Origin: a virus
Length of the DNA: 64,000 nucleotides
Strand: one strand, 5' to 3'
Virus record (IMG/VR): IMGVR_UViG_3300022744_000001
Location: 258,022-322,021 of that record
Shown: positions 36,667 to 58,247 of the stretch, one piece after another
Layout: each line of letters begins with the position of its first letter
Numbering within the stretch: position 1 is the stretch's first letter
Notes under the pieces: generated by a model
What the model was told of the DNA's origin: nothing
The model's database searches: none
What the model saw: only the letters and a program-made list of their open reading frames with translations
Translations under genes and position numbers: made by a program

Positions 36667-39600
36667 TCAAGGGTCAATCAGGAAATCCACCGTGCCGTCT
36701 TCGATGTTCTTGACCAGCCGGTACGTGTGGTACAACCCGTCAAGGAAATCAAAGGAAACCGCGCCGACAACCATCTCTGTGGCGAGGTCCAGGAGGCGAA
36801 CTTCGCGCTCCCCCGAAGGCATAGACACGAAAGCCAAAGCAGCTGTGATTGTGCCAAAGGCACTGAACCCGAACCTCACCCCAGTATCCCCGGTACCTCC
36901 AGTCGAATCGTTGTTCACCCGAAGAGTGAACGAGACCTCGGTATTCAACCCGATAGGATCCGTGAGTGGCGTAGCGTTGCGGTAAATCGTGTTCCCCGAG
37001 GAAACGGAGTAGGTCAAAACCCCATTGAAGATGGAGCGACTGATGGCCCCAGGGGAGTCCGACTCAATGACCCAAGGAGAGCCAAACCCGGAATCAAACT
37101 CAGGGAGGGCATTCCCGGCATACGTGCCGCAAACCTCTTTGGTCCAGTTCAACTTGTGGGAGATCGGGTTTGACTCGTCCGAGAACGGAGCAATGAAGTC
37201 CGTGGAGCCCGTCGTCTGCTCAACCACCTGCAACGAGTTGTAGAGCACGTCGTCAGGGACGATGAGGCGGACCTCTGTGGAGGCGTCGTTCAACAGGAAC
37301 CCATCCCCGTTGAGCACGTCCTCTGGCCGGTTGAGGGCGGAAAGGAAATAGACCTGCGGGGTCGGACGACGAACCTCGTATGTCTGGGTGCTGGGGACGA
37401 GCGGAGTGCCCTCGTTGAGACGCGTGAACGCCACCACTGCCGGGTTTTCCACGTACTGCTCCCAGGGATAGGGCACCCCTGTGGAAGACGAAGAGAACTG
37501 CGTGTGGTTGTGCGTGACCGACGTATCGAGGTGCTCCGGAGAGGACATCACGTTGCGCTGGTTCAGCACCTGGTGGTGCGGGACAATCCGGTCTTTGGAG
37601 ACCGCGGCCGAGTTGGTTACCCCGTACCGAACGAAGTCCCAAGCAACCTGGGAAAGGTTCGTAGGGTCGAACGCGCCCCAAGCCACCGAGGGAAGGCCCC
37701 CACTGGCCTTGGCCGGGAAACCCAAGCTGCTAGCGGGCAACGTTGTGGCGCTGTAGTCCACCCGGATCAAAGGGATCGAGATAGCGTCGAGAAGCAGCGA
37801 AACCGACCCGCCGGGCTCCCGCACAAGACGGTACTTGTGGTTGGCGGTCCAGTCGGTTTGGAGCGGGATTCGGTACCCCACTTCGCTTGGAGCCGCAGGG
37901 AAGCTTGCCGTAATGGTCAACGTCGTAGCTGACACCGTGGCAACCGAATAAATGCCCTTGTTTGACCCCACGTCGATGACCAGGTCGTCTCCAGGAGAAA
38001 CTCCCGCTGCAACGAAGTTCGCCGTCAGGTCAGTGAACGAGTTACCCGCAATCTTCGCAGCCTGCCCGGATGCCTTGAGCGGCAAGTGGTAGCCGGTGAG
38101 CAGGTTCGAATCGAAGCCCTTCCAGATACCTACGTAGCGACGCACGCCCGTTGTGGGCTGACCCCGCCAGACGTTGACGTAGTGCCAAGAAACAACGCTC
38201 TTGGCGCCCGAGCTAGCGGAGGTTGAGGAGCCGAACGAGATGGTCGGGTTCCCCACGGACATATTGAACGAAGAGTAGGCGAACGTGCCGAGCAAAGAGC
38301 CATCAACGAACAAGCTGACCAGGTCACCCGAAGTGCTCTTGACCATGCGCACGATGTGCTCAGACCCGTCGAACCAGTTGAAGTCGAACTCCGAGGAGCC
38401 CCCCAGTAGGAAGCCGTCCGAATGGAAGGCCAGCCGCCGAGTCCCGCCCACCGTCTGGCGAGCCATGAGCCCGATAGCTCGAGTGCCGTCGAAGACGTCC
38501 ACGGTAGCTCCGCAGAAGTTCTCGAGCGCCCCATCCGAGGTGTAGGATTCAATCTTGAGTTTGAACTCAATGTAGTAGTCGTTGTTGACCGAAATGACTC
38601 GAGTATCTGCTGTCGGGGGCTCGAGGTCTTCGATCGCGTACACACGACCGTCTGAAATCGACGTGTCCTCGATGACGAGGGTTTGCCCGGACATCCTTCC
38701 CACCTGGCCGCCCAGAGCCGCCCAGGGGCTCGGAGAGGCATTCTCGGGAAGGGTTCGGCCTGCGTACCCAATCTTGGGTTGAGCCTTCGTCGGGAAGAAC
38801 GAAACCTGCACCAGCCGCGACCCGTCGTCCACCGCCAACGTGACCGCGTCCTGGGTCACCCCATGGGTGTAGGTGCGAAGCTGGAGCCCAAAGTCAACGA
38901 CCACATCCGAGGACGAAGCCAGGAGCGGTTCGATGCGGGTGAAACCCTTGAAGTCTCCCCCGAGGATGCCCGCGTCGGTCGTCGCCGCCGCACTTGTCGA
39001 ATCGAGCACCAGGGTGCTCCCCGAGATCGTCTCGTTCCCATGCGAACCCACCGGCGTCCATGGGGCCGCAGATTCTTCGGGGGCCTCGTCCCCTTCATAC
39101 GAGACGTAGATGGTGGGCGCCGTTTGCTGGGGGTTTGTGGGCAGTACCAGGTACCGCACGAAGTCCCAGGTGCTAACGTTCTTGGCCTCACGGCTCAGAG
39201 ACCCAAAGAATGCGCCCTGCACTTGGTCAAACGGGTCGTTGATTTCACTCAGGTAGGGCAGCTCATCCGAAGTTACCCGTAGGGTCTCCACTACGTCGCC
39301 ATCCACGTAGAAGCGGATGACCCCGTCCAAGTCCCGAAGAACGCGATAGGAGTGCAGCGTTGACCAGTCGAAGGTAGCCGCCAGCCCTGTCGAGCTTCCA
39401 CTCGAGAGCCCTCCTGTCCAAGAGGCCGCCACAGAGGGGTCGTTGCCTTGTCCCTTCTTCAAGAAGCCGACTTTGCGGACGCCACCCTCAACGAGAAAGC
39501 CCACCAGGGCCACCTTCTCGTCGTCGGACCAGCCCGCCGAGATACCCGTGAAAACCCCGTCTGGCGTCGAGCTGTTGATCAACATGCGCCACGTCATCGC

Positions 39601-42081
39601 AAAAACATGCGGGAACGTGAGGTCCACTGGGTGAACCCAAAAGAGGGGGTTCCCCGCAGGGTAGGGGCCGTCCGTGTTGTCCTGCATGACCAGGTTGCCC
39701 GCGACCACGGAAGCGAGCCCAAGCCCCTGACGAGTCCAAGGGTCCGCGTCAGCCTCCGGCAAGGTATCCGCCGCGTAGGAAACCGAGACCTCGTCGATGG
39801 GCCTCGAGAGGGGTGGGTAGGCAATCCGATGGATCGGGGTGTTCAAGAGCAACGAGTTCGGGTCGTTCAGCGCGACCGAGTAGGCTCGCTCGAAAGCCCG
39901 ATAGTGCAGCTCACGAAGCAGGGGCTGCTCCTGGTTCGCCTCCATGTCGTCGGGTTCAAACGTCGTGGGGGTGATCAGCACGTTGCGGTAGCGGTACGTG
40001 TGCTGAGTTGGGCCCTGCCGTCCCGCATCCGTAGTCCAGCCGTTGAGCTTGAACTCATGGGAATTCAAACGACGGATCTCAATCGTGGGGTCAGAAATCC
40101 ACGAGTAATCCACCTTGACGTCATCGGTGGGGCTCGGAGCCGAGGGCAAGACGATCTGCCCAAGAAGCCCGATGACCGAATCCGGAATGACAGGCACCCC
40201 GTTGACACGCACCACCACGTCGGACGGGTCGTCCGCGACTTCCCCCGTCCTTGGGTTGTACAAACGCCAGGTCAGAGACCCGTTGGAGGGATCGGGAAGG
40301 CGGAGGTTGGCCTCGAGCCGAAGTCGTGTTGCCGACAGAACCGAAGTGACCTTGTACGAGCCCCCGTTTACCGAAGTTCCGCCAAGCGTGAGGTACATGC
40401 CCACGTGATTGGAGTTGAACGCGCCCCCAGGGAGCAGAACCTCGTTCAGCGTGACAGCCCCGAAATACATCGTGGGGGTTGTTTGAATCGTCCCCCCAAC
40501 GCCGCTGAACAACGTGAGCGACGGTTTCGCGATAGGGCCCTTGTCCGTAAAGATGGAGCGGGTTGTGAGCGGCACAGAGGCCGTGAACGCCGCCTGGTTG
40601 AACAAGGGGTCCATCGGGTTGCCCGCGACGTCCTTGGGCGTCCCAAAGGCATTCACGGTCAACGTGTACGACCCAGCCCCAAACCCACTGGTCAACAAAG
40701 CCACCGTTCGCATGTCGATAGCTCGAACTTCGTGGATGTACACGGGGGTCGGGCCACTGATTGTGTACTCATCCGGGGACAGCAACGCATCGTCAATGCG
40801 CATGTCCTCGTTGAAGGTGACCGTGACCGTCCCGTTGTCCGGCAAAAACTGCACCGAGGCCGTCTGGGGCTTGGTCGAGTTCGCGACGTAAACGGTGCGG
40901 CCTGTGAAGTACCGGTTCACCGACTTTCGGCGGATGCCCTTGACCGTGACTTGGTACTGCCTGCCTCGAGTGCCCTCCGTGGTCTTCAGAACCACTTGCT
41001 TGATGGCCTGGGTCTGAGCCCAGTACAGATTCCCTGTGCCAGGAACGAACCCCGTACCAGGCACGTAGGTGCCGTTGGAAGGGTCCATCGTGACCAGGGG
41101 CTTGTCCGTGGTCAGCACGGTACCGCTGACACTCTCAATGCGGAAATACTCGCGACCGATGAACGAGCGTTGGTCCGGTTCGTCTGTGTCCAAGACGAAC
41201 AGGTAGCGACCCACGAACGTCGGGTCGAACGTGCCTGTGTATGTGTCGAACAGCCAGGACTTGTTATCGTCTAACTGCTGTGCAACCACCTGCCCCTGCG
41301 AGCCCGTTTGGTCCACGTTGAAAACCGGGGTGACCGATTCGATGAGGATCGGGACGCCCCCGTCAATGGGTTCAACCGAGTAGTTGAAGATGTCCGAAAC
41401 CCCGTCGAGACGAACCTCTTCTGGGAACTCGAGCAGCACCGTCGTATCGTCGAGACTTGTGCTGAGGAGAGTGCCGACCTGAACGCCCTCGAAAAGGGTC
41501 AGGGTCTCGGACGAAGCCAAGGCCATGCTGAACTGAACCGAGACATCCTCGGACAGGGTCAGTGTGTCTGATGCGTTCGCCACGAACGGAGAGATGCCCT
41601 CCACGATCGTCATTGTCTCAGAGAGCGTGATCGTGCCGCCAAGGTTGAGCGTCTCAGAAAGGGTCAACGTCTCGGTGCTGCTCACGCCCCCAGGGGCGAT
41701 GTTGAAGGTGTAGCTAACCGCCAAAAGCGTGCTGGAGAGGTCGAGCGCATTGAAGGCTACGGAGACCGCATTCCCGATGGTGAAGTCTGGGTGCGTCACG
41801 GTGATGAGCAAGTCGGAGGCGTTCTCGTCCACGAAAGTGATCGTGCCCGAGTAGGGCGCCACGAAGCCTGAGTCCCGAATGACCTGAATCCCATCGAAGG
41901 TCAGGTAGATGGTCCCAGGGTCGAACTCCGACGGGGCATTCAAACGGAGCGAGAACGATGTGTTGGGGGCAACCGCGGTAGCATTTGGGGCGGGGGTTGC
42001 ACTCACCAGGGTAATGCCGCCGGATTCGATCGCGGCACTACCCCAGGGGGTGGTTCCGTATGGTGTCTGCCCGAAGCTCAT
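36667..42081 (-). CDS. giant virion structural protein (1804 aa)
   Basis: The N-terminus is MSFGQTPYGTTPWGS. Residues ~130-200 carry LSETLxL repeats (TETLTLSETLNLGGTITLSETMTIVEG…SETLTLFEG). It is a single 5.4-kb ORF. Confidence 0.85.
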   Translation of the reverse strand: MSFGQTPYGTTPWGSAAIESGGITLVSATPAPNATAVAPNTSFSLRLNAPSEFDPGTIYLTFDGIQVIRDSGFVAPYSGTITFVDENASDLLITVTHPDFTIGNAVSVAFNALDLSSTLLAVSYTFNIAPGGVSSTETLTLSETLNLGGTITLSETMTIVEGISPFVANASDTLTLSEDVSVQFSMALASSETLTLFEGVQVGTLLSTSLDDTTVLLEFPEEVRLDGVSDIFNYSVEPIDGGVPILIESVTPVFNVDQTGSQGQVVAQQLDDNKSWLFDTYTGTFDPTFVGRYLFVLDTDEPDQRSFIGREYFRIESVSGTVLTTDKPLVTMDPSNGTYVPGTGFVPGTGNLYWAQTQAIKQVVLKTTEGTRGRQYQVTVKGIRRKSVNRYFTGRTVYVANSTKPQTASVQFLPDNGTVTVTFNEDMRIDDALLSPDEYTISGPTPVYIHEVRAIDMRTVALLTSGFGAGSYTLTVNAFGTPKDVAGNPMDPLFNQAAFTASVPLTTRSIFTDKGPIAKPSLTLFSGVGGTIQTTPTMYFGAVTLNEVLLPGGAFNSNHVGMYLTLGGTSVNGGSYKVTSVLSATRLRLEANLRLPDPSNGSLTWRLYNPRTGEVADDPSDVVVRVNGVPVIPDSVIGLLGQIVLPSAPSPTDDVKVDYSWISDPTIEIRRLNSHEFKLNGWTTDAGRQGPTQHTYRYRNVLITPTTFEPDDMEANQEQPLLRELHYRAFERAYSVALNDPNSLLLNTPIHRIAYPPLSRPIDEVSVSYAADTLPEADADPWTRQGLGLASVVAGNLVMQDNTDGPYPAGNPLFWVHPVDLTFPHVFAMTWRMLINSSTPDGVFTGISAGWSDDEKVALVGFLVEGGVRKVGFLKKGQGNDPSVAASWTGGLSSGSSTGLAATFDWSTLHSYRVLRDLDGVIRFYVDGDVVETLRVTSDELPYLSEINDPFDQVQGAFFGSLSREAKNVSTWDFVRYLVLPTNPQQTAPTIYVSYEGDEAPEESAAPWTPVGSHGNETISGSTLVLDSTSAAATTDAGILGGDFKGFTRIEPLLASSSDVVVDFGLQLRTYTHGVTQDAVTLAVDDGSRLVQVSFFPTKAQPKIGYAGRTLPENASPSPWAALGGQVGRMSGQTLVIEDTSISDGRVYAIEDLEPPTADTRVISVNNDYYIEFKLKIESYTSDGALENFCGATVDVFDGTRAIGLMARQTVGGTRRLAFHSDGFLLGGSSEFDFNWFDGSEHIVRMVKSTSGDLVSLFVDGSLLGTFAYSSFNMSVGNPTISFGSSTSASSGAKSVVSWHYVNVWRGQPTTGVRRYVGIWKGFDSNLLTGYHLPLKASGQAAKIAGNSFTDLTANFVAAGVSPGDDLVIDVGSNKGIYSVATVSATTLTITASFPAAPSEVGYRIPLQTDWTANHKYRLVREPGGSVSLLLDAISIPLIRVDYSATTLPASSLGFPAKASGGLPSVAWGAFDPTNLSQVAWDFVRYGVTNSAAVSKDRIVPHHQVLNQRNVMSSPEHLDTSVTHNHTQFSSSSTGVPYPWEQYVENPAVVAFTRLNEGTPLVPSTQTYEVRRPTPQVYFLSALNRPEDVLNGDGFLLNDASTEVRLIVPDDVLYNSLQVVEQTTGSTDFIAPFSDESNPISHKLNWTKEVCGTYAGNALPEFDSGFGSPWVIESDSPGAISRSIFNGVLTYSVSSGNTIYRNATPLTDPIGLNTEVSFTLRVNNDSTGGTGDTGVRFGFSAFGTITAALAFVSMPSGEREVRLLDLATEMVVGAVSFDFLDGLYHTYRLVKNIEDGTVDFLIDP

Positions 42082-42135: not shown

Positions 42136-42606
42136 TCAGAAGTTCCAGCTAGAAATGTCCTGCCCCACGCACGCATACAGCGAAGTGTTTACCCCGTAGA
42201 CCCCATACCCCACGCCACGGGGGTACTGAATACCGTCCGGGTCAGGAAACTCAGTCAACCAAGACACGAAGCGGTTTGCGGTGCTATCCCAGGCGTAATT
42301 CACAACGCTCTTGTCACGCACCCAAACCGAAGTTGCCCAGGTACCCCCGAGGGAAGCACCCTCCACGAGAGGGGTGCTGGGGAAACTGTAGTTACCGCCC
42401 GAGTAGTTGGCTCCCGCTAAAGGTAAATACGAAGCGATTGTGCCAACACTCTTGCCGGTCGAGGAGTACCAACCACCACTTGCAACAACAACTGAGGGGA
42501 CCGTGTACGAAATAACTCGAGACGCGCTCGCAAAGTTGCCGCCGCCAGCAGTAACCACAGAGGTTACTGCCCCAAGGCTCCTCGTGTTTGTGGTGAAATT
42601 GGCCAA
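42136..42606 (-). CDS. small fibre-associated protein A1 (156 aa), paralog of A2; candidate tail-fibre assembly chaperone
   Basis: MANFTTNTRSLGAVTSVVTAGGGNFASASR… aligns with A2's MANFTGNSRTLSTVGVIATASGGNFAGASR…. It sits directly downstream of B1. Confidence 0.6.
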   Translation of the reverse strand: MANFTTNTRSLGAVTSVVTAGGGNFASASRVISYTVPSVVVASGGWYSSTGKSVGTIASYLPLAGANYSGGNYSFPSTPLVEGASLGGTWATSVWVRDKSVVNYAWDSTANRFVSWLTEFPDPDGIQYPRGVGYGVYGVNTSLYACVGQDISSWNF

Positions 42607-42614
42607 GGGTCACC

Positions 42615-43583
42615 TTAGAGCGTCGGCGCGGTATTGTTCTCCCACGGCACAACATGAGTGGAATCCACCCAAGCATAAGCATCCGTAGTGAGATTGGCCG
42701 TATCCGGGTAGGCTCGAGAGAAATTGCCCCCAAAAGCTAGGCGCTGAAAGATGCCCTTGAACCCATAGTTGGTAGCGCCATCAACTTGAAGTCGAAAGAG
42801 GCCCGCGAACAGGTAATACTCCTCGTTGCTGTCAAACGGGTTCGGGGAAACACTCTGATTCGCCGCAGTAGGAGGGATTGGCCCAACGGTACCCGAAGCA
42901 GTCGAAGCGGTCCAATGCCAGTTGGTGAAGCTAGCCCCGCTAAGACCGTACTTTGACCAGGCGAAAGTGGAAGTGTTGATCGGAGACAAAACGGCGGAGG
43001 TGACAAGACCTGCGGTGAGGTTGATGAAAATGCCTACGGGGGACGTGTCCAAGGCGTTCGTGTTATTGAGGCCGTCAAAGAAAATCCGCGTACGCGGCGT
43101 ACCGGTCGTGTTGTCAGTAGTGAAGAAAAAGAATGAGTAGACGTTGGTACTCACAACATCACTGAAAGCGATGCTGTGGCACTTGTACGTGTTGTCCGTG
43201 TTGAAGAGCGCCACGCCAGTAGGGGCAGCATCGGTACCAGAGCCAAGGATCACGCCCTCATCAGTTGCTGAAGGAGTTTGAGTGATTCCAGGGGTACCGC
43301 CTGTGAACTTAGCGCTCTCGGAAAATTTGACGCGCCAAAGCAGGTTCGTAGTCGTTCGCTGGAAAGTGAACTCCCGCTGAGTCCCCGGATCTTGGATACG
43401 AAACCACGCGTTGGTCGCGGCCAAAGAGGTCGAGAGCGTGATCTGGTCTCCGGTCGAGTTGTAGGTGGTGCCATTCGAACTCGACTTGACGACCCAGCCC
43501 GCAGAAACCAGCAACTGCTTCAACGAGAAAATCGCAGCAGCCCCGGTCGCAGGAGTTTGATTGACCGAAGTAAACTTCGCCAT
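42615..43583 (-). CDS. fibre-like protein B1 (322 aa), paralog of B2 and B3
   Basis: The N-terminus MAKFTSVNQTPATGAAAIFSLKQ…TTYNSTGDQIT…NAWFRIQDPGTQREFTFQRTT…LWRVKFSESAKFTGGTP is conserved across B1, B2 and B3. The C-terminal two thirds diverge but end in VPWENNTA. Confidence 0.75.
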   Translation of the reverse strand: MAKFTSVNQTPATGAAAIFSLKQLLVSAGWVVKSSSNGTTYNSTGDQITLSTSLAATNAWFRIQDPGTQREFTFQRTTTNLLWRVKFSESAKFTGGTPGITQTPSATDEGVILGSGTDAAPTGVALFNTDNTYKCHSIAFSDVVSTNVYSFFFFTTDNTTGTPRTRIFFDGLNNTNALDTSPVGIFINLTAGLVTSAVLSPINTSTFAWSKYGLSGASFTNWHWTASTASGTVGPIPPTAANQSVSPNPFDSNEEYYLFAGLFRLQVDGATNYGFKGIFQRLAFGGNFSRAYPDTANLTTDAYAWVDSTHVVPWENNTAPTL

Positions 43584-43589
43584 GGTACC

Positions 43590-44558
43590 TCACATCTGCG
43601 CGGCGGTATTGTCTTCCCACGGCACCGCAAAATCCGTGGAAGTCAGCACGTAGGAATTGCTGGTAATACTTTCCGTGAACGGGTAGGACCTTGCAAAATT
43701 CGTCACGTAGGCCAGACGCTGGCAAAACCCCTTGAACATAAGATTGGTGTCTGTGCTCGCCCGGTACAACCCCACCAGTTTCAGCAGTAGCTCATTACCA
43801 CTGTAGATGTCCGGGCCAACACCGTTTCCTGCCGTAGTCGCTGGCACATAAGCCGTGCCGATGTTGGCAATCGCCCACACCTTCCAGTTAGTGAAGGCTG
43901 CGCCGCTGAGCCCGTACTTGTACCAACCCCAAACCCACGTAAGAACTGTACCAGACATGAGAGTGCCAGCACTGAAGGCACCCGAGGAGTTCACCAGGAA
44001 GATCCCTAGCGGAGAAACGTCGGCCGCGTTTACCGGTGACAAACCGTCCACGAAAAACCGGGTTCGAATGTTTCCGGAGTTCGGGTAGTCCGTGGTGAAG
44101 AAGAAGAACGAGTACACGTTGGTCGCTACCGCATCGCTGAAAGCGATCGCATGGCACCGATAGGTCGCATCCGTGTTGAAGAGAGCTGCACCAGTAGGGG
44201 AAGCATCGGTACCCGAACCGAAGATCACACCCTCGTCGGTCGCAGAAGGTACCTGGGTAACGCCAGGAGTGCCCCCTGTGAACTTGGACGACTCAGAGAA
44301 TTTGATCCGCCACAGCGTGTTGTTGGTCGTCCTCTGGAAAACAAACTCTCGCCGTGTCCCAGGGTCCTGAATGCGGAACCACGCGTTGGTCGCGGCCAGA
44401 GACGTTGTGCCTGTGATCTGGTCCCCGGTCGAGTTGTAGGTGGTACCATCACTCGAGGCTTTGACTGACCAGCTCGCGTTCACGAGCGTTTGCTTGAGGC
44501 GGTAAACCGCTTCGGCACCAGTCGCTGGAAGGTTGTTGACTGAGGTGAACTTAGCCAT
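43590..44558 (-). CDS. fibre-like protein B2 (322 aa)
   Basis: The N-terminus MAKFTSVNNLPATGAEAVYRLKQ… has the same architecture as B1 and B3. Confidence 0.75.
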   Translation of the reverse strand: MAKFTSVNNLPATGAEAVYRLKQTLVNASWSVKASSDGTTYNSTGDQITGTTSLAATNAWFRIQDPGTRREFVFQRTTNNTLWRIKFSESSKFTGGTPGVTQVPSATDEGVIFGSGTDASPTGAALFNTDATYRCHAIAFSDAVATNVYSFFFFTTDYPNSGNIRTRFFVDGLSPVNAADVSPLGIFLVNSSGAFSAGTLMSGTVLTWVWGWYKYGLSGAAFTNWKVWAIANIGTAYVPATTAGNGVGPDIYSGNELLLKLVGLYRASTDTNLMFKGFCQRLAYVTNFARSYPFTESITSNSYVLTSTDFAVPWEDNTAAQM

Positions 44559-44561
44559 AGG

Positions 44562-45035
44562 TCAGTTCCATCCCGTGCGGTCACGCCCCACGTAGGTATA
44601 GCCAGAAGTGTTTGTTCCAAACGCCCCATACCCAGAACCCGAGGGGTAGAACTGCCCCTGGGGATCAGGCTGCTGCGTCCTCCACGTAACGATTCGACCT
44701 GCAATCGAGTCCCATACCGAGTTGATGATAGACAGATTTCGCGAAGGCCAAACCGAAGTCTGATAGTTTCCGCTGTTCTTGGGACCCTCAATCAAAGGGG
44801 TAGCCGGAAAGCTGTGGTTGCTACCCGAGTAGTTAGCGCCCGCAAGAGCCACATAAATGGCAGTTGTGGCTGAAAGCGAACGAGGAGTGGTTGCATAAGT
44901 ACCGCCTGAAGCGGTCGCGATTATCCCAATCGTCGTTGGGATAGAACGAGAAGCTCCAGCGAAGTTGCCCCCAGAGGCGGTCGCGATTACCCCAACCGTC
45001 GAGAGAGTGCGACTATTGCCCGTGAAGTTCGCCAT
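44562..45035 (-). CDS. small fibre-associated protein A2 (157 aa), paralog of A1
   Basis: See A1. It sits directly downstream of B3. Confidence 0.6.
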   Translation of the reverse strand: MANFTGNSRTLSTVGVIATASGGNFAGASRSIPTTIGIIATASGGTYATTPRSLSATTAIYVALAGANYSGSNHSFPATPLIEGPKNSGNYQTSVWPSRNLSIINSVWDSIAGRIVTWRTQQPDPQGQFYPSGSGYGAFGTNTSGYTYVGRDRTGWN

Positions 45036-45046
45036 AAGGCTCTACC

Positions 45047-46030
45047 TCAGAGAATCGCCGCGGTACTGTTTTCCCACGGAATCACGAAAGTCGTGTTGAC
45101 CCAGACATAGGCATCCGTGGTCAGGTTCAACGTGTCCGGATAGGTTCGAGCCGAGTTCATGTTGAGAGCCATGCGCTGGCTGATGCCTTTGTAGTGCTGG
45201 GAGGTGTCCGTGCTATCCCGGAAAGCCCCGCAAATTTTGGCAACGTCCTCGTCCCCCGCGTAACCGTTCGGGGAAACGCTCACGCTGTAAGGAGGAACCG
45301 ATGTCGCCGCCGAAGAACCTGTCGCAGTGCGGGTGAGCCCAAACATACGATAAACGTTGAACGCCGCGCCGCTGAGCCCGTACTTGTACCAAGCCCTTAT
45401 GATGTTGAGGGTGATAGTGACATTGTGGACATCTGTAGACGTCAAAATCGCAGTCTTGTACGCCGCAACGATGAAAAGAGGGGAGGTGTCTTGTGCGTTA
45501 GAGCTGTGGACGCCCGAAACAAAGAAGTAGGTACGAGTCAAGCCCGTGGTGAAATCCGTAGTGAAGAAATAAACGTCGTAGACGTTGGTACTCACTACGT
45601 CGCTAAAACAGATAGCGTGGCTGCGATAGGTCGCATCCGTGTTGAACATCTGCGTACCGGTTGCGGTAGAGTCGGTACCAAGAGCCGACCCGAACAACAG
45701 GGCTTCGTCGGTCGCTGTCGGGGTCGTCGTCGCGTTCGGGGTGCCACCCGTGAACTTGGACGACTCGGAGAATTTCACACGCCAGAGCGTGTTGTCCGTG
45801 CCTCTCTGGAAGGTGAACTCACGTCGCGTCCCGGGGTCCTGGATACGGAACCAAGCTCGAGTGACGGCAAGAGAAGCAGCTGAGGAGATCTGGTCTCCCG
45901 TGCTGTTGTACGTAGTGCCATCTCCGCTCGACTTGACAACCCAACCCGCACTAACCATGCAGGTTTTGAGGCGGTAGATTGCATCCGCCCCTGTCGAGGG
46001 AACCTGGTTCACCAGAGTGATCTTCGCCAT
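45047..46030 (-). CDS. fibre-like protein B3 (327 aa)
   Basis: MAKITLVNQVPSTGADAIYRLKT… is paralogous to B1 and B2. A GAGGGG ribosome-binding site lies about 9-14 nt upstream. Confidence 0.75.
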   Translation of the reverse strand: MAKITLVNQVPSTGADAIYRLKTCMVSAGWVVKSSGDGTTYNSTGDQISSAASLAVTRAWFRIQDPGTRREFTFQRGTDNTLWRVKFSESSKFTGGTPNATTTPTATDEALLFGSALGTDSTATGTQMFNTDATYRSHAICFSDVVSTNVYDVYFFTTDFTTGLTRTYFFVSGVHSSNAQDTSPLFIVAAYKTAILTSTDVHNVTITLNIIRAWYKYGLSGAAFNVYRMFGLTRTATGSSAATSVPPYSVSVSPNGYAGDEDVAKICGAFRDSTDTSQHYKGISQRMALNMNSARTYPDTLNLTTDAYVWVNTTFVIPWENSTAAIL

Positions 46031-46086
46031 CGCAGCAACCCCTCAAAGCCTCGCAGACCCAACACAAAGCGCTGGGCATAAGGGGA

Positions 46087-48018
46087 TCACCCGATGCTGA
46101 AGCCCGTCCACAAAAGCGAGGCCATGGGGTTGGTCGTAGGAGAGGCGTCCAGATACACCCGAAGTTCGTAAACTCGAGCAGTGTTGAAAATCTGGTTGGT
46201 GTTCGTCCCTGGGCTCGCGGTTTGAGTCAAGGTCTGGTCAATCACGTTGTAGAGGTTGACGTTCGCGAACGGAATCACGACCTGGCTTCGCAGCACCGGA
46301 GCAAAGCTCGTCCCGCCTGGGCCAAGGTCATAGAGGCTCATCGTGAGGCTCGCCGAGCTGTCCGTGGTCGAGAACATCGCCACCATGCGGAGCTTGACCG
46401 TGGTTGTGCTGTAGAGGGTCGGGTCGAAGTAGAACCCACCCATCGATTGAGTTACACGAGCCAACGTGATGGTGCGCCCGGAGGCCGCCGTGAGCTGGAT
46501 ACCGGACAGGCCGCCCGTACCGCCCGGGATCGTCACCGTGATGGGGTTCGTCCCGCTTGCGGTGACGCCAGCCCCCACGAAGTTGATGGAGGTGACGCTC
46601 GAGGACAGAGCAGAGCCTTCATCCGAAACCGTGATAGCCGGGGTTGGGACGTTGACCGTGACCGCCGTGGTGCCAGAAGCCGTTACGCCGCCACCAGTGA
46701 AGTTGATGGAGGTGACGGCAGCCGAGAGGGTTGAGCCCTCATCCTGCACCGTCAGGGCACTACCAGCACTACCCGGGATCGTCACCGTCACTGACGAGGT
46801 GCCCGTCGCAGTGACCCCAGCACCGACGAAATCGATCGAGGTGACAGCAGCCGAGAGCGGAGTCCCTTCGTCCGAAACCGTGAGAGCGCTTCCCGTACTA
46901 CCAGGAATCGTGACGGTTACCGCAGACGTTCCTGTGGCGGTTACACCTGCCCCAACGAAGTTGAGCGAAGTAACTCCCGAGGTGAGGGTTGAGCCCTCAT
47001 CCTGGACAGTCAAGTTACTAGCAGGGATCGTCACCGTGACGTTCGAGGTGCCCGTGGCTGTTACGCCACCGCCTACGAAATTGAGAGTGGAGAGCGCTGT
47101 AGTGAGGTTCGAACCCTCGTCTTGAACCGTGACGCCGGGGACCGTGACCGTGACCGCTGTAGTCCCTGTGGAGGTGACTCCTGCCCCTACAAAGTTGAGC
47201 GACGTGACGGCCGTCGAAAGGGTTGAACCCTCATCCTGGACCGTCAGGGCACTCCCGGTGCTGCCAGGGATCGTGACCGTGACCGAAGAGGTACCCGTAG
47301 CAGTGACGCCCGCCCCCACAAAATTCAGCGACGAAACCGAACTCGAAAGGGTTGAACCCTCATCCTGTACCGTGATGGCTGGGGTCGGGATCGTCACTGT
47401 GACCGACGAAGTTCCCGTTGCGGTTACGCCACCCCCAACGAAGTTCATGGAGGTCACACTCGAGGAGAGCGTGGAACCTTCGTCCTGCACTGTCAGAGAA
47501 TTGCCCGGGATGTTGACCGTTACTGCCGAGGTTCCTGATGCAGTAACCCCCGCACCGGTAAAGTTCAGCGATGCGGCCCCCGACGTAAGCGTGACCCCCT
47601 CGTCCTGCACCGTGAGGGGGTTGCCCGGGACGTTGACGGTAACGGCTGTGGTACCTGATGCTGTAATGCCTGCGCCAGTGAAGTTCAGAGACGCAACGCC
47701 GGTAGAAAGCGTCGAGCCCTCGTCCTGCACCTCCAACCCGGGGATCGTGACCGTGACGGCTGTCGTACCGCTCGAGGCGACTCCTGCCCCCGTGAAATCG
47801 ATGGACGAGACCGAGTTGGAAAGGGTTGAACCCTCGTCCGAGACCGTGAGGGTGCTGGCCGGGACGTCCCAGACGTCGATGATGGTGTCGTCTACAAGAG
47901 GCCCGCCGAAAGGGGGAGGGTTCGGATACGCCGAGCCCGGAGAGGTCGAAACCCAGGTGACGTAAGTGGTGCCAGGGGCGCCGGAGTCCCTGGCTCGCTT
48001 CTTGTAGAAGAGGGTCAT
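46087..48018 (-). CDS. repeat-shaft fibre or spike protein R1 (643 aa): conserved N-terminal anchor, about 11 tandem repeats of ~35-42 aa, and a unique C-terminal tip
   Basis: The N-terminus MTLFYKKRARDSGAPGTTYVTWVSTSPGSAYPNPPPFGGPL…IDVWDV is shared with R2. The repeat unit is LTVQDEGSTLSxxVTSLNFVGAGVTATGTSxVTVTIPG(+/-GSTGSA). The C-terminal ~145 aa are unrelated to R2. Confidence 0.8.
   Translation of the reverse strand: MTLFYKKRARDSGAPGTTYVTWVSTSPGSAYPNPPPFGGPLVDDTIIDVWDVPASTLTVSDEGSTLSNSVSSIDFTGAGVASSGTTAVTVTIPGLEVQDEGSTLSTGVASLNFTGAGITASGTTAVTVNVPGNPLTVQDEGVTLTSGAASLNFTGAGVTASGTSAVTVNIPGNSLTVQDEGSTLSSSVTSMNFVGGGVTATGTSSVTVTIPTPAITVQDEGSTLSSSVSSLNFVGAGVTATGTSSVTVTIPGSTGSALTVQDEGSTLSTAVTSLNFVGAGVTSTGTTAVTVTVPGVTVQDEGSNLTTALSTLNFVGGGVTATGTSNVTVTIPASNLTVQDEGSTLTSGVTSLNFVGAGVTATGTSAVTVTIPGSTGSALTVSDEGTPLSAAVTSIDFVGAGVTATGTSSVTVTIPGSAGSALTVQDEGSTLSAAVTSINFTGGGVTASGTTAVTVNVPTPAITVSDEGSALSSSVTSINFVGAGVTASGTNPITVTIPGGTGGLSGIQLTAASGRTITLARVTQSMGGFYFDPTLYSTTTVKLRMVAMFSTTDSSASLTMSLYDLGPGGTSFAPVLRSQVVIPFANVNLYNVIDQTLTQTASPGTNTNQIFNTARVYELRVYLDASPTTNPMASLLWTGFSIG
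46524..47853 (-). repeat. imperfect tandem coding repeats of ~105-126 nt within R1
   Basis: Units such as gaagttgatggaggtgacg…cgtgaccgtgac recur about 11 times. The antisense ORFs 46466..47125 and 47129..47965 (VTPAPTKL repeats) are mirror artefacts. Confidence 0.7.
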
Positions 48019-48126
48019 GTCGAGTCTGCCTCAACCACGCAAAGCATAGGTCAAATATGGGTTCTCAGATTTGACTGCTGCCACTAAAACCAGGTGTGCC
48101 TTCCCCAGCACGAAACCATGAGTCGC

Positions 48127-48837
48127 CTAAGTCTGATCCAGTTTCCATTGCCAGTAGTTTGTATACGCCTGGATCTCGTCCTCGCCCCATTCCCTATCGT
48201 CGATGAAGGCGTCAAGGAAACCACCAGCCTGGAAGGCGGATAAGTTCGTGTTCTTGCCGAGCGTCATGGGGCTGGTTGCTGCGATGGAGTTCCCCAGTGA
48301 TGCGCCGTTCTTCCAACCGATTCGCGTGCCGTTGATGTACATCGCAGCGTAGTCAGCAACTGCCCCTCCGGTCTGCACAGTTTTCGACGAGATGCCTTGC
48401 CGAAACAAACAAATCGCCTTCGTGAACGAGTAGGAGGGTCCCGACACGCCCGTAGCGATCGCTGTGCCCAGGTTCACCCAAGCCCCCGCAGGCACAGATA
48501 GGTTAGCGTTCAGGTACCAGCCGCAGTTCGAGCCCGACCAGTTGGACATGGTCACTGAGCCCGAATAGAGAACGATGCCAGCTGTGGCCATCGGGATAGT
48601 CGAGGTGTTGAGCCACGACCAGTCGGCCGCACTGGCCCCCGCAATGGATTGGCTCGCACCGTCAAATGTCAGCACGGGCAGCCCAATACCTGTCGTGGTG
48701 GTAAGCGTGGCAGTGCCTGTCAAATTCTTGGGGATCCTGCCCATGTCAGTCAGCGTGCCGCCGCTGAATTTGTGCGGGCGAAACCAATTTCGAGGCTGCT
48801 TCCACAGATGATTTTGAAAGCGGGCAATGACAGGCAC
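48127..48837 (-). CDS. LamG-like (concanavalin-A-like lectin or glucanase fold) protein L1 (236 aa)
   Basis: The C-terminal motif LGKNTNLSAFQAGGFLDAFIDDREWGEDEIQAYTNYW matches the Laminin_G_3 end signature (G…F.G.IDEVRIYNRALSAEEI). An upstream LTFDGASQSI block is also present. Confidence 0.75.
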   Translation of the reverse strand: MPVIARFQNHLWKQPRNWFRPHKFSGGTLTDMGRIPKNLTGTATLTTTTGIGLPVLTFDGASQSIAGASAADWSWLNTSTIPMATAGIVLYSGSVTMSNWSGSNCGWYLNANLSVPAGAWVNLGTAIATGVSGPSYSFTKAICLFRQGISSKTVQTGGAVADYAAMYINGTRIGWKNGASLGNSIAATSPMTLGKNTNLSAFQAGGFLDAFIDDREWGEDEIQAYTNYWQWKLDQT

Positions 48838-48846
48838 GGTGCACCC

Positions 48847-49560
48847 CTAAATCTGGTCGAGCTTCCACTTCCAGTAGTTCGTGTATGCCTGGATTTCGTC
48901 CTCACCCCACTCACGATCGTCCACGAACAGGTCTAGGAACCCGCCAGCCACAAAGGCATTCGTACTGAGGTTTTTACCCACTTGGAATGGGATCGCCGGA
49001 TTGACCGCGCCAGCGGTCCAAGTGCCCGCAGCGCGGTGGCCCACACGAAGGCCGTTGACGTACGCGGCTCCGGTATCGAAACCTGTGCTTGGCGAAACTG
49101 ATGTCCTTGTTGGTGGCGCAACACGAAACACAACCACTTGCTTGCCTGCAACGTTGCAGCCGGAAGCGCCGCACCGATAGAGCAGCGTCCCCGACGTGGT
49201 CTGGATGGCAAGGTCGGTGCCCGTGCTGCCCCACGCCAATCCGAAGACACCTGCCGTACCTGCCCCGCCCCATGTTCCAGGTTGGATCGTTCCAGTGTAT
49301 ACGACCCCGCCCATGGTGAAGGGGCCGGTCTGCATGAAGAACCAGTCCGCCACGCTGGACGCAGCCAGATACTCGCTGGTGCCATTGAACGAGCAGCCCC
49401 ACCCGCCATTCGTTAACGTCAGAGTGGCCGAACCTGTGGTGAAGTTTTTGGGCGAACGCCCCGAGTCGAGATATGACCCAGCCGCCTGCATTCGCCCCGG
49501 ATTGTACCAATGAAGCGGCTGTTGCCACTGCTCATTCACGGCGCGCGCCAAGTAAGCCAT
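48847..49560 (-). CDS. LamG-like protein L2 (~238 aa from the internal Met MAYLARAVNEQW…)
   Basis: The motifs are CSFNGTSEYL and VGKNLSTNAFVAGGFLDLFVDDREWGEDEIQAYTNYW. The track ORF extends to 49623, but that N-terminal extension overlaps L3. The start is chosen at 49560, giving a TGATG overlap with the L3 stop. Confidence 0.7.
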   Translation of the reverse strand: MAYLARAVNEQWQQPLHWYNPGRMQAAGSYLDSGRSPKNFTTGSATLTLTNGGWGCSFNGTSEYLAASSVADWFFMQTGPFTMGGVVYTGTIQPGTWGGAGTAGVFGLAWGSTGTDLAIQTTSGTLLYRCGASGCNVAGKQVVVFRVAPPTRTSVSPSTGFDTGAAYVNGLRVGHRAAGTWTAGAVNPAIPFQVGKNLSTNAFVAGGFLDLFVDDREWGEDEIQAYTNYWKWKLDQI

Positions 49561-50261
49561 CAGATCAGCCCCAACTTGTAATGCCAAAACCGTGTGTAGG
49601 CATAAACCTCGTCGTCCATCCACTCACGATTGTCGAGGAAGAAGTCGAGAAAGGTTCCCGCCTGAAAGCCTGACTGTGTAGAAGTCTTGCCAATGATGAG
49701 GGGACCCGCGGGAGTGACTGAGTTTGTGGTCCACGTTGAGTTCTTGAAGCCATAACGCCACCCATTGAAATAGCCGAAGCCCCACTCAATCTGCACACCG
49801 CCGATCGATGTGTGCGAAGACAACCCGCACCTGAAAACATGAACGGCTTTCACCGCAGGCATCACCTGGTTCATTACTCGCCAGACCGCCGAACCCGCGT
49901 TGGACATGAGACAGTCGGCCGATGCCGACCCTGGACCTGCGTTTACGGAAATCCCAGTGTTGGTCACGGCTGTGCGCGTGCACGGCGACATGATGCCCGT
50001 GTAAACCACCAGGCCCATCGTCCACGATGTATTGTGCAAGTAGGTCCAGTCCGCAGCCGCAGCGGCTGACAGGGACTGGCTGGTGCCGTTGAACGAGCCG
50101 TAAAGCACACCATTGCTGGTCGTGGTGCTCATGGTGCCGGTTAGGTTCTTGGCCGTACCTGAGCCCGAATCGGACAGCGTGCCACCGCTGTAGTCCTGTG
50201 GGCGCCAGCGATGATCGACCGACCGAACGAACAAAGGCTCAGTGCGTTGAAGGCGCGGCAT
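49560..50261 (-). CDS. LamG-like protein L3 (233 aa)
   Basis: The motifs are GSFNGTSQSL and IGKTSTQSGFQAGTFLDFFLDNREWMDDEVYAYTRFW. The N-terminus MPRLQRTEPLFVRSVDHRWRPQDYSGGTL parallels that of L1. Confidence 0.75.
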   Translation of the reverse strand: MPRLQRTEPLFVRSVDHRWRPQDYSGGTLSDSGSGTAKNLTGTMSTTTSNGVLYGSFNGTSQSLSAAAAADWTYLHNTSWTMGLVVYTGIMSPCTRTAVTNTGISVNAGPGSASADCLMSNAGSAVWRVMNQVMPAVKAVHVFRCGLSSHTSIGGVQIEWGFGYFNGWRYGFKNSTWTTNSVTPAGPLIIGKTSTQSGFQAGTFLDFFLDNREWMDDEVYAYTRFWHYKLGLI

Positions 50262-50264
50262 TGG

Positions 50265-52253
50265 TTACCCCACCAGATGCCAGTTGGTACCATCTGCCAT
50301 GAAATATGCTGACTCGCCGTCAGAGATCATGACCCACGAGGACGAAGTCTTGCTCAACGGGGTGACGATATTCCCCGTAAAAGCCACGGTAACTTGGTAG
50401 CCATAAGCCGGACCCTCTATTTTGACCGCAATCTGTGCACCGTTTGTTGCTGTCGGCAAATTCACGGTAAGGTTGGCTGAGGCTGCAAAAGGGTCAACTC
50501 GTACGAAATCCCCCGCCGCTGCGTTGTAGGTAGCAGTTTTTACCGCAGTAAACGTGTACGGGTTACTGCTAACGCCCGGGATCGTCACCGTGACCGGGTT
50601 CGTCCCGCTTGCGGTGACGCCTGCACCGGTGAAATTGATCGTAGTGACACTCGAGGAAAGCGTGGACCCTTCGTCCTGAACCGTAATCACCGGGGTTGGG
50701 ACGTTGACCGTGACCGACGAGGTACCCGTCGCAGTCACACCGCCGCCAGTGAAGTTCAGCGAAGTGACCGCGCTCGAAAGGGTCGAACCCTCATCCTGAA
50801 CCGTCAACGAACTTCCAGGAACCGTAACCGTGATGTTCCCCGTTCCGCTCGCGGTAACACCACTGCCAACGAAGTTCAGCGAAGTGACGTTGGTTGAGAG
50901 TGTCGAACCCTCATCCTGAACCGTGATCGCGGGGCTTGGAATGGTGACCGTGACTGCCGTTGTCCCCGTAGCAGTGACGCCCCCTCCCACGAAGTCGATG
51001 GAGGTAACCGCAGCCGAAAGCGTGGAGCCTTCATCTTTGACAGTAAGAGCGCTCCCACCTCCAGGAATCGTGACCGTGACAGCAGAGGCACCTGTGGCTG
51101 TGACCCCTGCGCCAACGAAATCGATCGACGCGACTGTGGTTGAAAGCGGAGTGCCTTCATCTGAAACCGTGAGAGCTGTGGCGGGGATCGTCACCGTGAC
51201 CGACGGCCCACCGGTTGCCGTAACCCCAGCTCCGACGAAGTTGAGAGTGGTGGCAGCCGTAGTGAGGGTGGAACCCTCGTCCTGTACCGTCAACGAACTC
51301 CCGGGGACCGAGACCGTCACCGTTCCTGTCCCCGACGCCGTGACCCCCGCGCCGGTGAAGTTCAGGGTGGAGACGCTCGAGGAGAGCGTGGAACCCTCAT
51401 CCTGTACCGTGAGAGAGCTGCCCGGGACCGTCACCGTGACCGCTGTGGTACCCGTGGCCGTGACCCCTGCGCCCACGAAGTCGATCGAGGTCACCGCACT
51501 CGAGAGGGTGGAACCTTCGTCCTGAACCGTGATGGTGGGAGCTGGGACGTTGACCGTCACCGTCCCAGGGCCGCCGCTCGAGGTGACCCCCGCGCCGGTG
51601 AAGTTCAGGGTCGTCGCCGCGGTCGAAACCGGAGTCCCTTCATCCTGCACCGTGAGCCCAGGGACGTTGACCGTGACTGCCGTTGTCCCCGTCGCTGTAA
51701 TCCCTGCGCCGGTGAAATTGATCGATGTGGCGGCGCTCGAGAGCGTCGAGCCCTCATCCTGAATGGTCAGCCCAGCCGATTCGGCCGCATGCTCAACCGA
51801 GTAGTACCACTGGACGCCCGAGCCAAAGTCTCGAGCCACAGCGTGCACCACCGAGACCGCGTTGGCCGCCGGGTTGATCGTCACCGTGGGGTCAACAGGT
51901 ACCCAGTTCGAACCAAACGCCAGAGTCCGCCCGCCCGTGGCGTCCTGCTTGACCGCCACCCAGAGGAGCTTGGTCGCCGAGGAGTGGGTAGGATTCCCGA
52001 GCGTCCGGTTGCCCCCCAGCGTGACCTGGAAATGGTCGCCAAGCTCGAGGTCAATAGCGATGGTCGCAGCATCTGTCAGAGTGACGACGTCGCCAAACAC
52101 CTCCCACACATCGACAATCATCTCTTCCGAGAGAGGGCCGCCGAAGGGGGGACTAAAGGGGTATGCCAGGCTGGCAGAGGTCGTCACCCAGGTCACGTAG
52201 GCTGGGGTAACGGACCCTGTATCTCTAGCTCGTTTCTTGTAGTACCGAGCCAT
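50265..52253 (-). CDS. repeat-shaft fibre or spike protein R2 (662 aa), paralog of R1 with a ~105-aa insertion and a different C-terminal tip
   Basis: The N-terminus is MARYYKKRARDTGSVTPAYVTWVTTSASLAYPFSPPFGGPL…VDVWEV. About 12 repeats of the same LTVQDEGSTLSxAVTSxNFxGAGVTATGT…VTVxIPG unit follow. The C-terminal ~100 aa (…ISDGESAYFMADGTNWHLVG) are unique. Confidence 0.8.
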   Translation of the reverse strand: MARYYKKRARDTGSVTPAYVTWVTTSASLAYPFSPPFGGPLSEEMIVDVWEVFGDVVTLTDAATIAIDLELGDHFQVTLGGNRTLGNPTHSSATKLLWVAVKQDATGGRTLAFGSNWVPVDPTVTINPAANAVSVVHAVARDFGSGVQWYYSVEHAAESAGLTIQDEGSTLSSAATSINFTGAGITATGTTAVTVNVPGLTVQDEGTPVSTAATTLNFTGAGVTSSGGPGTVTVNVPAPTITVQDEGSTLSSAVTSIDFVGAGVTATGTTAVTVTVPGSSLTVQDEGSTLSSSVSTLNFTGAGVTASGTGTVTVSVPGSSLTVQDEGSTLTTAATTLNFVGAGVTATGGPSVTVTIPATALTVSDEGTPLSTTVASIDFVGAGVTATGASAVTVTIPGGGSALTVKDEGSTLSAAVTSIDFVGGGVTATGTTAVTVTIPSPAITVQDEGSTLSTNVTSLNFVGSGVTASGTGNITVTVPGSSLTVQDEGSTLSSAVTSLNFTGGGVTATGTSSVTVNVPTPVITVQDEGSTLSSSVTTINFTGAGVTASGTNPVTVTIPGVSSNPYTFTAVKTATYNAAAGDFVRVDPFAASANLTVNLPTATNGAQIAVKIEGPAYGYQVTVAFTGNIVTPLSKTSSSWVMISDGESAYFMADGTNWHLVG
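50567..51770 (-). repeat. imperfect tandem coding repeats within R2
   Basis: These have the same unit type as the R1 repeats. The antisense ORFs 50923..51525 and 51529..51762 are mirror artefacts. Confidence 0.7.
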
Positions 52254-57800: not shown

Positions 57801-58247
57801 TTCTGTGGCCCCGTAAGCACCTTGCTCGATGGTTGCGGGGATAGCCGCCAGAATATCCACCGCATCTCGACGCCGCCGAACCTTGATGCCCGAGGGGATG
57901 TCCACCTGGGCCACGTCGCTCTGTCGGATTTTCGTGACCGAAACCAGAGCCGTTGCGCTGACCCCGCCAACGATATCGATGGTGCGCACCAAAATCGTGT
58001 TGAGGCCAGGCTCGAGGATCAACCCTTCCGTGTACGAACTCGGGTTCGGAATCGTGAACGCGGGCAGGTCGAAGCTCACCAGGGTAGGGTCAGAAACGAA
58101 CGCCCCGCCGTTGATCGAAACCTGGATATCCACTGCCGAGGTATCCGCGAGGCCCTCGATGAAGATCGAGCTGCGGTTCGTACTGAACACGAGGTTTTGG
58201 GTGTACCCCGATCCATCCCTGAGTTTAATCTGCGGTGCAGTGGCCAT
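54801..58247 (-). CDS. large virion protein (1148 aa). A baseplate-wedge (gp6/J-like) role is suggested only by size and by its position upstream of the fibre cassette
   Basis: A single 3.4-kb ORF. The functional assignment is positional inference and is not motif-based. Confidence 0.7.
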   Translation of the reverse strand: MATAPQIKLRDGSGYTQNLVFSTNRSSIFIEGLADTSAVDIQVSINGGAFVSDPTLVSFDLPAFTIPNPSSYTEGLILEPGLNTILVRTIDIVGGVSATALVSVTKIRQSDVAQVDIPSGIKVRRRRDAVDILAAIPATIEQGAYGATETAIFQGFNVYASTSPAGTTGYFLLNENLITSASGVYDETTSDIGDESTVWTRNETGNVIRVKVTEEDVFGNEISTRLDQTYTVTDYSGDLRFTSTLQERTLTQYARFRHYRSGGTGILNSDQFASVADTDPLYYVVTGVYFDSATSVEVESAFSQEVLGTPLTIDTAIRDLPGRTQFQVLTDYVAAIQRVDQEISLIPGSTTRDVSIDPFSSEAERLYFLLDFIHRAQSFLTLLQIDDANGDGVSDPVASSAYKTALKAALGYSTDAAVQSLIDSAFDKLAANVNKTRLPGRPAVGQEVFYTTSRPTFDLPIPAGTIVSTSADSSLGIPSVRYRVGGTYVMSAAQADSYYNFDRKRYEITVDIVAETLGEVGNRPAGQITSSQGVTGLLVTNLEATVFGADRESNADLAARALLGFVSVDTGTEGGYTSTSAEQVGVIKAKVVKSGDDLMMRDYDLVRHKHIGGKVDIWVQGLRERQVSEKFAFTFEIARDIICQIIDLPTLTFRVQDSRVTVNTPIVELLDNSGQGLGVRNVTQGLDYLLTNAQIIDYQTFKLDPSLVGQVATNIDDVVTADYRFRVVNQFKFSLQPVRRVVSVVGEVSGTLDTSLGYNLYKTEDPLLEGESTIASDYLSINQVGGIPSGETITVNDEVHTLIGFIEEPLLSIGINTKTIRVFNADRSIEYDGPDATNPDYQVIDGTATTPVRIVRTATSDIVNGAAVSVDYVHDENFTVTYVINDLLQQLQRTINSRRHVTADVIVKQAINNSIDIETTVQLLSGATRDKADPAIRSNASLELNKRTIGQGVAQSDMINAIDSTTGVDFQVVPFARMAYADGSRKLRESLSSASLELTSLGIGGNLAFILTAPLQSPTTDGGGLTTEHKGVFQDDEAMTLSATLALVASASNQAYIIGSSGALIAGYTDSATLLAAGFTTAAAQEAELLRRTANHVVVALPSSDLPGNHGYAVSYVVRGDSGSKDVSASGVEFVELGNFTITFRTAT

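Follow-up and report, generated by a model that had tools for sequence, protein, structure and literature searches.

This report deals with ten tandem genes on the minus strand of a viral DNA, at positions 42136 to 52253 of a stretch of 64,000 nucleotides (nt) that corresponds to positions 258,022 to 322,021 of IMG/VR virus record IMGVR_UViG_3300022744_000001. The stretch, from here on called the window, belongs to a metagenome contig of 448,224 bp (ENA ERZ27252002 k141_47206). In our judgement the ten genes probably form a composite block for host adhesion within the tail module of the phage, built from separable cassettes, in which the paralogs are mostly distinct, co-assembling parts and not interchangeable receptor-binding variants. 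An initial annotation, made from the letters of the DNA, had spoken of ten paralogs of fibre and receptor-binding type. Fibre-shaft proteins are A1 and A2 only; the members of the B, L and R families are globular accessory proteins. In order of transcription the genes are:

A1, 50265..52253, minus strand: fibre-shaft protein of 662 amino acids (aa)
B1, 49560..50261, minus strand: 233 aa, stand-alone ConA/LamG-like protein, first of the trio, its fold taken from the B3 model
B2, 48847..49560, minus strand: 237 aa, ConA/LamG-like, second of the trio; the long reading frame reaches 49623
B3, 48127..48837, minus strand: 236 aa, GTG start, ConA/LamG-like, third and most divergent of the trio
A2, 46087..48018, minus strand: 643 aa, the other fibre-shaft protein, with the largest gap (108 nt) ahead of it
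L1, 45047..46030, minus strand: 327 aa, globular, predicted JBD30 gp47/gp48 fold, L of cassette 1
R1, 44562..45035, minus strand: 157 aa, N-terminus MANFTG, putative partner protein of cassette 1
L2, 43590..44558, minus strand: 322 aa, first L of cassette 2
L3, 42615..43583, minus strand: 322 aa, second L of cassette 2, with L2 as closest paralog
R2, 42136..42606, minus strand: 156 aa, TTG start, N-terminus MANFTT, putative partner protein of cassette 2

The ten open reading frames (ORFs) fill the interval exactly. An all-vs-all blastp of their products yielded four families without any cross-family match: A1/A2 are 54-61% identical (E 1e-110 to 1e-144), B1/B2/B3 34-38% (E 1e-32 to 1e-43), L1/L2/L3 53-60% (E about 1e-112 to 1e-132) and R1/R2 54% (E 3e-52). 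With E values from 1e-144 to 1e-32 across the families, the paralogy is not spurious but far beyond chance, and the four families in two to three divergent copies, of one orientation and tightly packed (gaps of -1 to 108 nt), that the initial annotation had described are real. The order it gave (R2, L3, L2, L1, R1, B3, A2 and so on) had to be corrected, L1/R1 and B3/A2 being swapped and the direction mislabelled: transcription runs A1, B1, B2, B3, A2, L1, R1, L2, L3, R2, and by ascending coordinates the genes are R2, L3, L2, R1, L1, A2, B3, B2, B1, A1. In the direction of transcription the intergenic distances are 3, -1, 9, 108, 56, 11, 3, 6 and 8 nt, followed by 54 nt. The larger gaps (108, 56 and 54 nt) fall at the borders between A1-B1-B2-B3, A2, L1-R1-L2-L3-R2 and a protein of 1804 aa; no sizeable gap separates L1-R1 from L2-L3-R2. 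The arrangement, which had been called mosaic, is modular.

Two flanking genes bear on the location of the cluster:

Baseplate wedge/Baseplate_J-like protein, 54801..58247, minus strand: 1148 aa, Pfam Baseplate_J E 7.5e-16, phrog_6 baseplate wedge E 1.8e-27
1804-aa protein, 36667..42081, minus strand: immediately downstream of the cluster

The wedge neighbour, as judged from these profile matches, fixes the cluster in the predicted tail-baseplate module of a huge contractile-tailed phage. After the wedge gene the minus strand carries the ten genes and then a series that includes giant, fibre-like products, with proteins of 1804, 579, 867, 709, 2377 and 1527 aa; all that lies beyond position 16964 is structural and encoded on the minus strand. 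The wedge protein has a counterpart in the 485-kb uncultured phage LR745208 (37% identity) and a relative in Tunturiibacter phage Tunturi_5 (309 kb), namely gp241. In LR745208, tblastn of the window proteins found the homologs of a 270-aa baseplate protein and of the 1804-aa protein close together, and between them it detected none of the ten genes, nor those for proteins of 172 and 392 aa. Because this stretch is absent there, the cluster is an accessory insertion that varies between lineages, set into a conserved backbone of baseplate and fibre genes.

A1 and A2 have a common N-terminus of 52 aa (60% identical), which was found nowhere else in the data examined. It is followed by a repeat of about 40 aa, LTVQDEGSTLSSxVTSLNFVGAGVTATGTxAVTVTIPG, present in 10 copies in A1 and 11 copies in A2, which appears in the DNA of both genes as 120-nt tandem repeats that are 60-76% identical to each other. 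The C-terminal domains, of 102 aa in A1 and 144 aa in A2, are unrelated. That of A1 is 81% identical to the corresponding domain of protein P0130, likewise encoded ahead of a B trio; apart from P0130 no relatives of the two C-terminal domains were detected. The repeat has 678 homologs, one of which bears the NCBI name 'tail fiber domain-containing protein', and the ten that were scanned contain Phage_T7_tail N-terminal, PRD1_P5_spike_N, Peptidase_S74, C1q, Collagen or YadA_head domains. From these partner domains we infer that the A1 fibre is probably trimeric. In the termini of A1 and A2 themselves Pfam, PHROG and PDB sequence searches revealed no recognised fibre anchor or tip/chaperone domain, and neither the repeat profile nor the two C-terminal domains matched a solved structure among the PDB sequences. 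A1 and A2 may thus be seen as two fibres with like docking sites and different ends: A1 would have a shaft of 40-aa repeats, and A2 would be a second fibre which, having the same 52-aa anchor, would dock at the same type of site with another C-terminal domain. A1 also harbors at residues 53-161 (51771-52097) an inserted domain of about 110 aa that is absent from A2; three tandem copies of it (51-63% identical) are present in P0132, a metagenomic protein with PF26209.

A common anchor with different C-terminal domains is also what one would see if the paralogs were receptor-binding proteins each acting on its own, as alternatives shown next to one another for several hosts or receptors. As an account of the whole cluster we consider this redundancy unlikely. 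For A1 versus A2, redundancy and co-assembly are not mutually exclusive.

The B family was difficult to trace. A word-indexed search gave one outside homolog, and an exhaustive HMMER search of 1.8 billion representatives gave 40 relatives. B1-B3 had no match in Pfam at E <= 0.1, and the deeper B profile found nothing significant among PDB sequences. Three of 35 remote relatives match Pfam Laminin_G_3 (PF13385), a result that refers to the proteins as a whole. The AlphaFold2 model of B3 (predicted local distance difference test 83.5, predicted template modelling score 0.84) is a ConA-like jelly roll. On the strength of this model B1-B3 are assigned to the ConA-like lectin/Laminin_G_3 superfamily with a predicted jelly-roll beta-sandwich. 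The initial annotation had made conserved N-termini and divergent C-termini a general feature of the cluster, which is correct for A and L and fails for B, whose most conserved part is the C-terminus, and for R.

Lectin folds are typical binders, as redundancy would have it, and ConA-like domains are known from glycoside hydrolases and toxins as well, which would suit a quite different explanation: that some of the families serve a non-virion function, with B as a secreted lectin and L as an enzyme, in lysis, host takeover or superinfection exclusion. This we regard as improbable. The distant relatives of B are longer proteins that end in the B-like region, preceded by fibre-like parts with collagen triplets and Gly/Thr/Val-rich repeats; B thus resembles a domain of fibre-like proteins, which speaks against a non-virion role.

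Further evidence on B comes from a 48-kb JGI contig. It encodes an 851-aa A homolog, of which the last approximately 275 residues are 70% identical to A1 (81% in the C-terminal domain), followed by three B genes that are collinear reciprocal best hits of B1 (47-54% identical), B2 (67%) and B3 (39%). None of the other proteins of the window was detected in the 14.4 kb of this contig that were fetched. Because the trio is collinear with B1, B2 and B3, the triplication is older than the split of the two phages, and since the trio has kept its order and accompanies a C-terminal domain of A1 type, its members are likely to have three distinct, non-redundant roles tied to the A1 fibre. This conservation argues against B1-B3 as recent interchangeable variants. 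We propose that A1, B1, B2 and B3 form one cassette in which B1-B3 would be detachable, distal carbohydrate-binding subunits of the A1 fibre.

L1-L3 have the predicted three-dimensional fold of gp47/gp48 of Pseudomonas phage JBD30, which form its tail fibres (PDB 8rk3), at a sequence identity of about 10%. In JBD30 the similarly folded gp47 and gp48 pair as heterodimers, three of which stack per arm, and three such lateral arms, the 'tail fibres', embrace the type IV pilus. The Dit protein gp49, whose gene lies immediately downstream, wraps its N-terminal domain (residues 2-74) around the gp47/gp48 arms (PMC11445458). The start of gp48, MAYFTGTANNPA...LGW, closely resembles that of L, MAKFTSVNQTPATGA...AGW. 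The closest structural relatives of L are thus obligate co-assembling paralogs, which argues against redundancy.

In favour of redundancy is the distribution of differences among the L paralogs, whose N-halves are 68-77% identical and whose C-halves are only 36-43% identical. L2 and L3, which are adjacent, are the closest pair (61% overall, 77% in the N-half); L1 lies one gene away. The L family has at least 248 metagenomic members. A scan with a 16-sequence alignment found runs of one to four L copies in 25 IMG/VR loci and three Logan loci: four copies in a 436-kb contig, three in contigs of 394, 104, 96 and 70 kb, and a single copy in most other loci (contigs up to about 92 kb). The copy number thus varies between phages. 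According to identity matrices, from which the history of L was read, the L copies within one genome are each other's nearest relatives, which indicates repeated tandem amplification or concerted evolution. There has been no recent conversion among the L genes, because in the window the paralogs are 41-77% identical in DNA and the longest exact string is 27 nt. The recurrent, lineage-specific duplications and the changing copy number are what redundancy predicts.

The non-virion explanation can point to JBD30 itself, since Valentova et al. 2024 (PMC11445458) assigned gp47 to the nitrilase superfamily. The near-invariant residues of L include no Cys and no Glu, two residues of the Glu-Lys-Cys triad, and a nitrilase-type enzyme is therefore unlikely. 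Also against a non-virion function, single-copy L homologs are found inside the baseplate modules of small contractile-tailed phages at two loci, in the first between Baseplate_J and a wedge-like gene and in the second between the gpV spike and gp25, and the BFVD matches of L are 'virion structural proteins' of siphophages. Immediately upstream of a single-copy L in two unrelated myophage contigs (L010, 9515-9706, and L012, 9808-9999) there is a 63-aa Cys/His-rich ORF (CPCPE...CP.GHVH), 54% identical between the loci and absent from the window, which may encode a small metal-binding partner.

The R proteins are of another kind. The identity of R1 and R2 is uniform, about 54% along their length. 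Scans of viral and metagenome contigs yielded no R relatives, and the sole homolog, picked up with a local HMM (hmmsearch E 3.7e-10), is an ORF downstream of L in one of the L loci (L015). What recurs is the position and the start. In 13 of 25 non-redundant IMG/VR loci an ORF beginning with M-A-[DN]-[FY] starts within 100 nt of the last L stop, against a background of 20 such starts in 397 kb, with the post-L sites themselves accounting for 14 of them; the same was seen in three of four additional loci from metagenome-assembled genomes. The starts encountered are MADFTG, MANFTG, MADYTG, MADFSS and MADFTT, besides MANFTG in R1 and MANFTT in R2, and relaxed versions (MAEF, MATY, MTDF, MADR and others) cover several of the remaining loci. 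The rest of the post-L proteins is variable, 76 to 616 aa long, several consisting of Ig-like repeats of about 100 aa, and BLAST of R against small post-L ORFs elsewhere gave no similarity beyond the N-terminal motif. The motif-headed ORF follows only the last L of a run, which points to an ordered assembly unit and not to redundant binders.

By this gene order the window holds two (L)n-R cassettes, L1-R1 and L2-L3-R2, of a type that keeps its layout from phage to phage, which favours co-assembling subunits over alternative tips. The identities fit a duplication of the cassette followed by duplication of L in the second one. We propose that L is the globular part with the gp47/gp48 fold and R the variable protein after it, and that the N-terminal MA[D/N][F/Y](T/S)G peptide would dock R onto an L oligomer. 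The docking is modelled on gp49 of JBD30, which starts MATFPGF and holds the gp47/gp48 arm by that N-terminal region. In JBD30 (L038, 4083-6200) gp47, gp48 and gp49 begin with MATEFG, MAYFTG and MATFPG, L begins with MAKFT and R with MANFTG; these similar starts could represent a common N-terminal strand used in arm assembly.

The initial annotation had also considered an unrecognised variation system. Such a system could work through recombination among the paralogs, through an invertible segment or through a diversity-generating retroelement, any of which would reshuffle or mutate the tips. Tandem paralogs and the 120-nt repeats in A1 and A2 give this idea a superficial pattern, and we hold it to be very improbable. 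Inverted repeats are absent from 41500-53500 and from the whole window, and direct repeats do not exceed about 77% DNA identity in either; the window proteins that were scanned with Pfam include neither a reverse transcriptase nor a recombinase. A variation system is therefore unsupported for the window. Of its possible forms, an invertible segment (of the Mu Gin/P1 Cin type) or a shufflon was rejected for the lack of inverted repeats and the single orientation of the ten genes, a diversity-generating retroelement for the lack, within the window, of a near-identical template/variable repeat pair and of a reverse transcriptase among the scanned proteins, and recent gene conversion on the DNA identities and shared string length given above for L, which hold for all paralogs. 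Even the A repeats have diverged in DNA to the extent already mentioned. The Logan assembly of SRR7614061 is 100% identical over 19.9 kb, which likewise speaks against active variation, with the restriction that it may derive from the same sample.

Several points weigh against the composite block of co-assembling parts that we favour. None of the ten proteins matches a Pfam or PHROG family directly, virion families included, which would also suit a non-virion function. The Pfam and PHROG scans returned nothing usable, megablast of the region and tblastn of L1 against 50,697 phage records gave no matches, and PDB sequence searches with the A, B, R and L profiles gave nothing significant. The resemblance of L to gp47/gp48 is one of fold, with at best marginal similarity in sequence: in hhalign the L profile aligned with gp48 at E 0.009 over the first 60 residues and with gp47 not at all. 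The link between A1 and the B trio comes from one other contig, and R has only one detectable homolog outside this phage. Recurrent lineage-specific duplication of L with divergent C-halves fits diversifying selection on alternative binders as well. The trimeric state of A and all contacts between partners are putative. Presence in the virion, stoichiometry, the receptor-contacting part and co-transcription are likewise what we infer; co-expression, taken for granted in the initial annotation, is suggested by strand and spacing.

On the other side, affinities to virion adhesins are seen in at least three of the four families, namely in A by its shaft repeats, in B by its lectin fold and in L by its JBD30 fold, and together with the location in the tail module this makes a multi-component adsorption apparatus plausible. 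To this extent the multivalent apparatus that had been suggested for the cluster survives; over ten alternative tips, co-assembling subunits are favoured.

More tentatively, and with considerable doubt, one may go a step further and see in (L)n-R a widespread, so far undescribed plug-and-socket baseplate adhesin system and in B1-B3 a fixed three-paralog lectin tip on a trimeric A1 fibre. L would be the socket or arm, to which the downstream protein (76-616 aa, of unrelated folds) would be attached by its MA(D/N)(F/Y)(T/S)G peptide, so that distal domains could be swapped freely. Huge phages would amplify L into hetero-oligomeric arms, and the B tip would follow the logic of the C1q heterotrimer.

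New in this work are the structural assignments of L and B, families without Pfam or PHROG annotation, the conserved cassette of A1 tip and B trio, and the (L)n-R cassette with its N-terminal signature. A new biological principle is not involved, since phiKZ and JBD30 have already provided examples of fibre paralogs that assemble together. Baseplates with several fibres are to be expected in jumbo phages. The cluster illustrates how an uncultured phage of very large size would build a complex attachment organelle from exchangeable cassettes and not by multiplying one receptor-binding protein. The MA[D/N][F/Y] start after L provides a simple, testable rule for finding variable partner proteins, possibly the true specificity determinants, and such a rule would help host-range prediction and engineering for uncultured phages.

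Some observations on the expression signals of the cluster may be added. For B2 the start at 49560 (237 aa) is more likely than that at 49623, as it is also found in an independent gene call and forms a TGATG overlap with the B1 stop. A promoter/terminator scan of the cluster gave nothing above shuffled expectation. The gaps 48019-48126, 46031-46086 and 42082-42135 hold hairpin-capable sequence, for example a terminator-like site behind B3 (48111-48096). In many genes of the operon the start codon lies 3-11 nt past the upstream stop (42607-42614, 43584-43589, 45036-45046, 48838-48846 and others), and a GGTG/GGTA-type element directly abuts that stop, as in tgaGGTGACCCttg and tgaGGTACCatg; the short spacing and this element suggest translational coupling with a non-canonical Shine-Dalgarno sequence. 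Long plus-strand ORFs of up to 608 aa (39448-41274, 51789-53006 and others) lie antisense to the minus-strand genes. They are of low complexity, rich in Arg, Gly and Pro, and are probably shadow ORFs in DNA of 59% GC and not genes.

Elsewhere in the window, 195-15284 (minus strand) is a replication module with a family A DNA polymerase (PolA), a DnaB-like helicase, a primase zinc ribbon, an SNF2 helicase, an AAA ATPase and an NT5C nucleotidase. At about 16 kb, the start of the structural module, the AT skew changes sign with the coding strand unchanged. Two minus-strand proteins of the structural module, of 1527 aa (16964-21547) and 867 aa (31543-34146), have their first approximately 300 residues in common (38% identical, E 7e-48), and each of them has matches in Tunturi_5, to the 'tail fiber protein' gp247, and in a region of LR745208. 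They make up a predicted fifth paralogous fibre family, outside 42136-52253. A 508-aa ORF cut by the edge of the window (62474-64000, minus strand), which has weak PHROG tail-fibre matches, and the 1804-aa protein have a common segment of 85-157 aa (31-39% identical).

The cluster can be compared with four known systems. In phiKZ gp131-135 are tandem paralogs with similar N-termini and different C-termini that co-assemble into one hetero-hexameric fibre base (PMC13250141). The likeness lies in tandem jumbo-phage paralogs with similar N-terminal regions and different C-terminal domains, and that the phiKZ proteins are not alternative fibres argues against redundancy in a cluster of the same pattern. 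In contrast to phiKZ, four unrelated families are interleaved here; the C-terminus of phiKZ gp131 is a seven-bladed propeller, and a relation in sequence or fold is not expected.

Modular trimeric tail fibres, with a T7 gp17-type N-terminus, a Peptidase_S74 chaperone or C1q/collagen tips, are the counterpart of A1 and A2, the repeat of which occurs in hundreds of proteins bearing such hallmarks. A1 and A2 differ in being without these terminal domains and in having an anchor found only in each other. For B1-B3 the counterparts are the ConA-like modules of tailspikes and toxins, such as the tailspike gp15 of the cyanopodophage Pan3 (9vyh), clostridial neurotoxin Hc-N and CBM40. Unlike these, the B proteins are stand-alone, about 235 aa long, below the Pfam threshold, arranged as a fixed trio and provided with a conserved C-terminal helix.

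The counterpart of L and R is JBD30, a 37-kb siphophage with two very diverged paralogs, whereas here a phage of approximately 448 kb with a Baseplate_J wedge has three L proteins, 53-60% identical, and two small R proteins. Pilus binding and the stacking of heterodimers are features of JBD30 and would be putative for L. In both phages adjacent paralogs are encoded in the tail-tip/baseplate region, the N-terminus of gp48 (MAYFTG...) is L-like, and the arm-holding N-terminal segment of gp49, the protein encoded next, parallels the MA[DN]F-headed R proteins.

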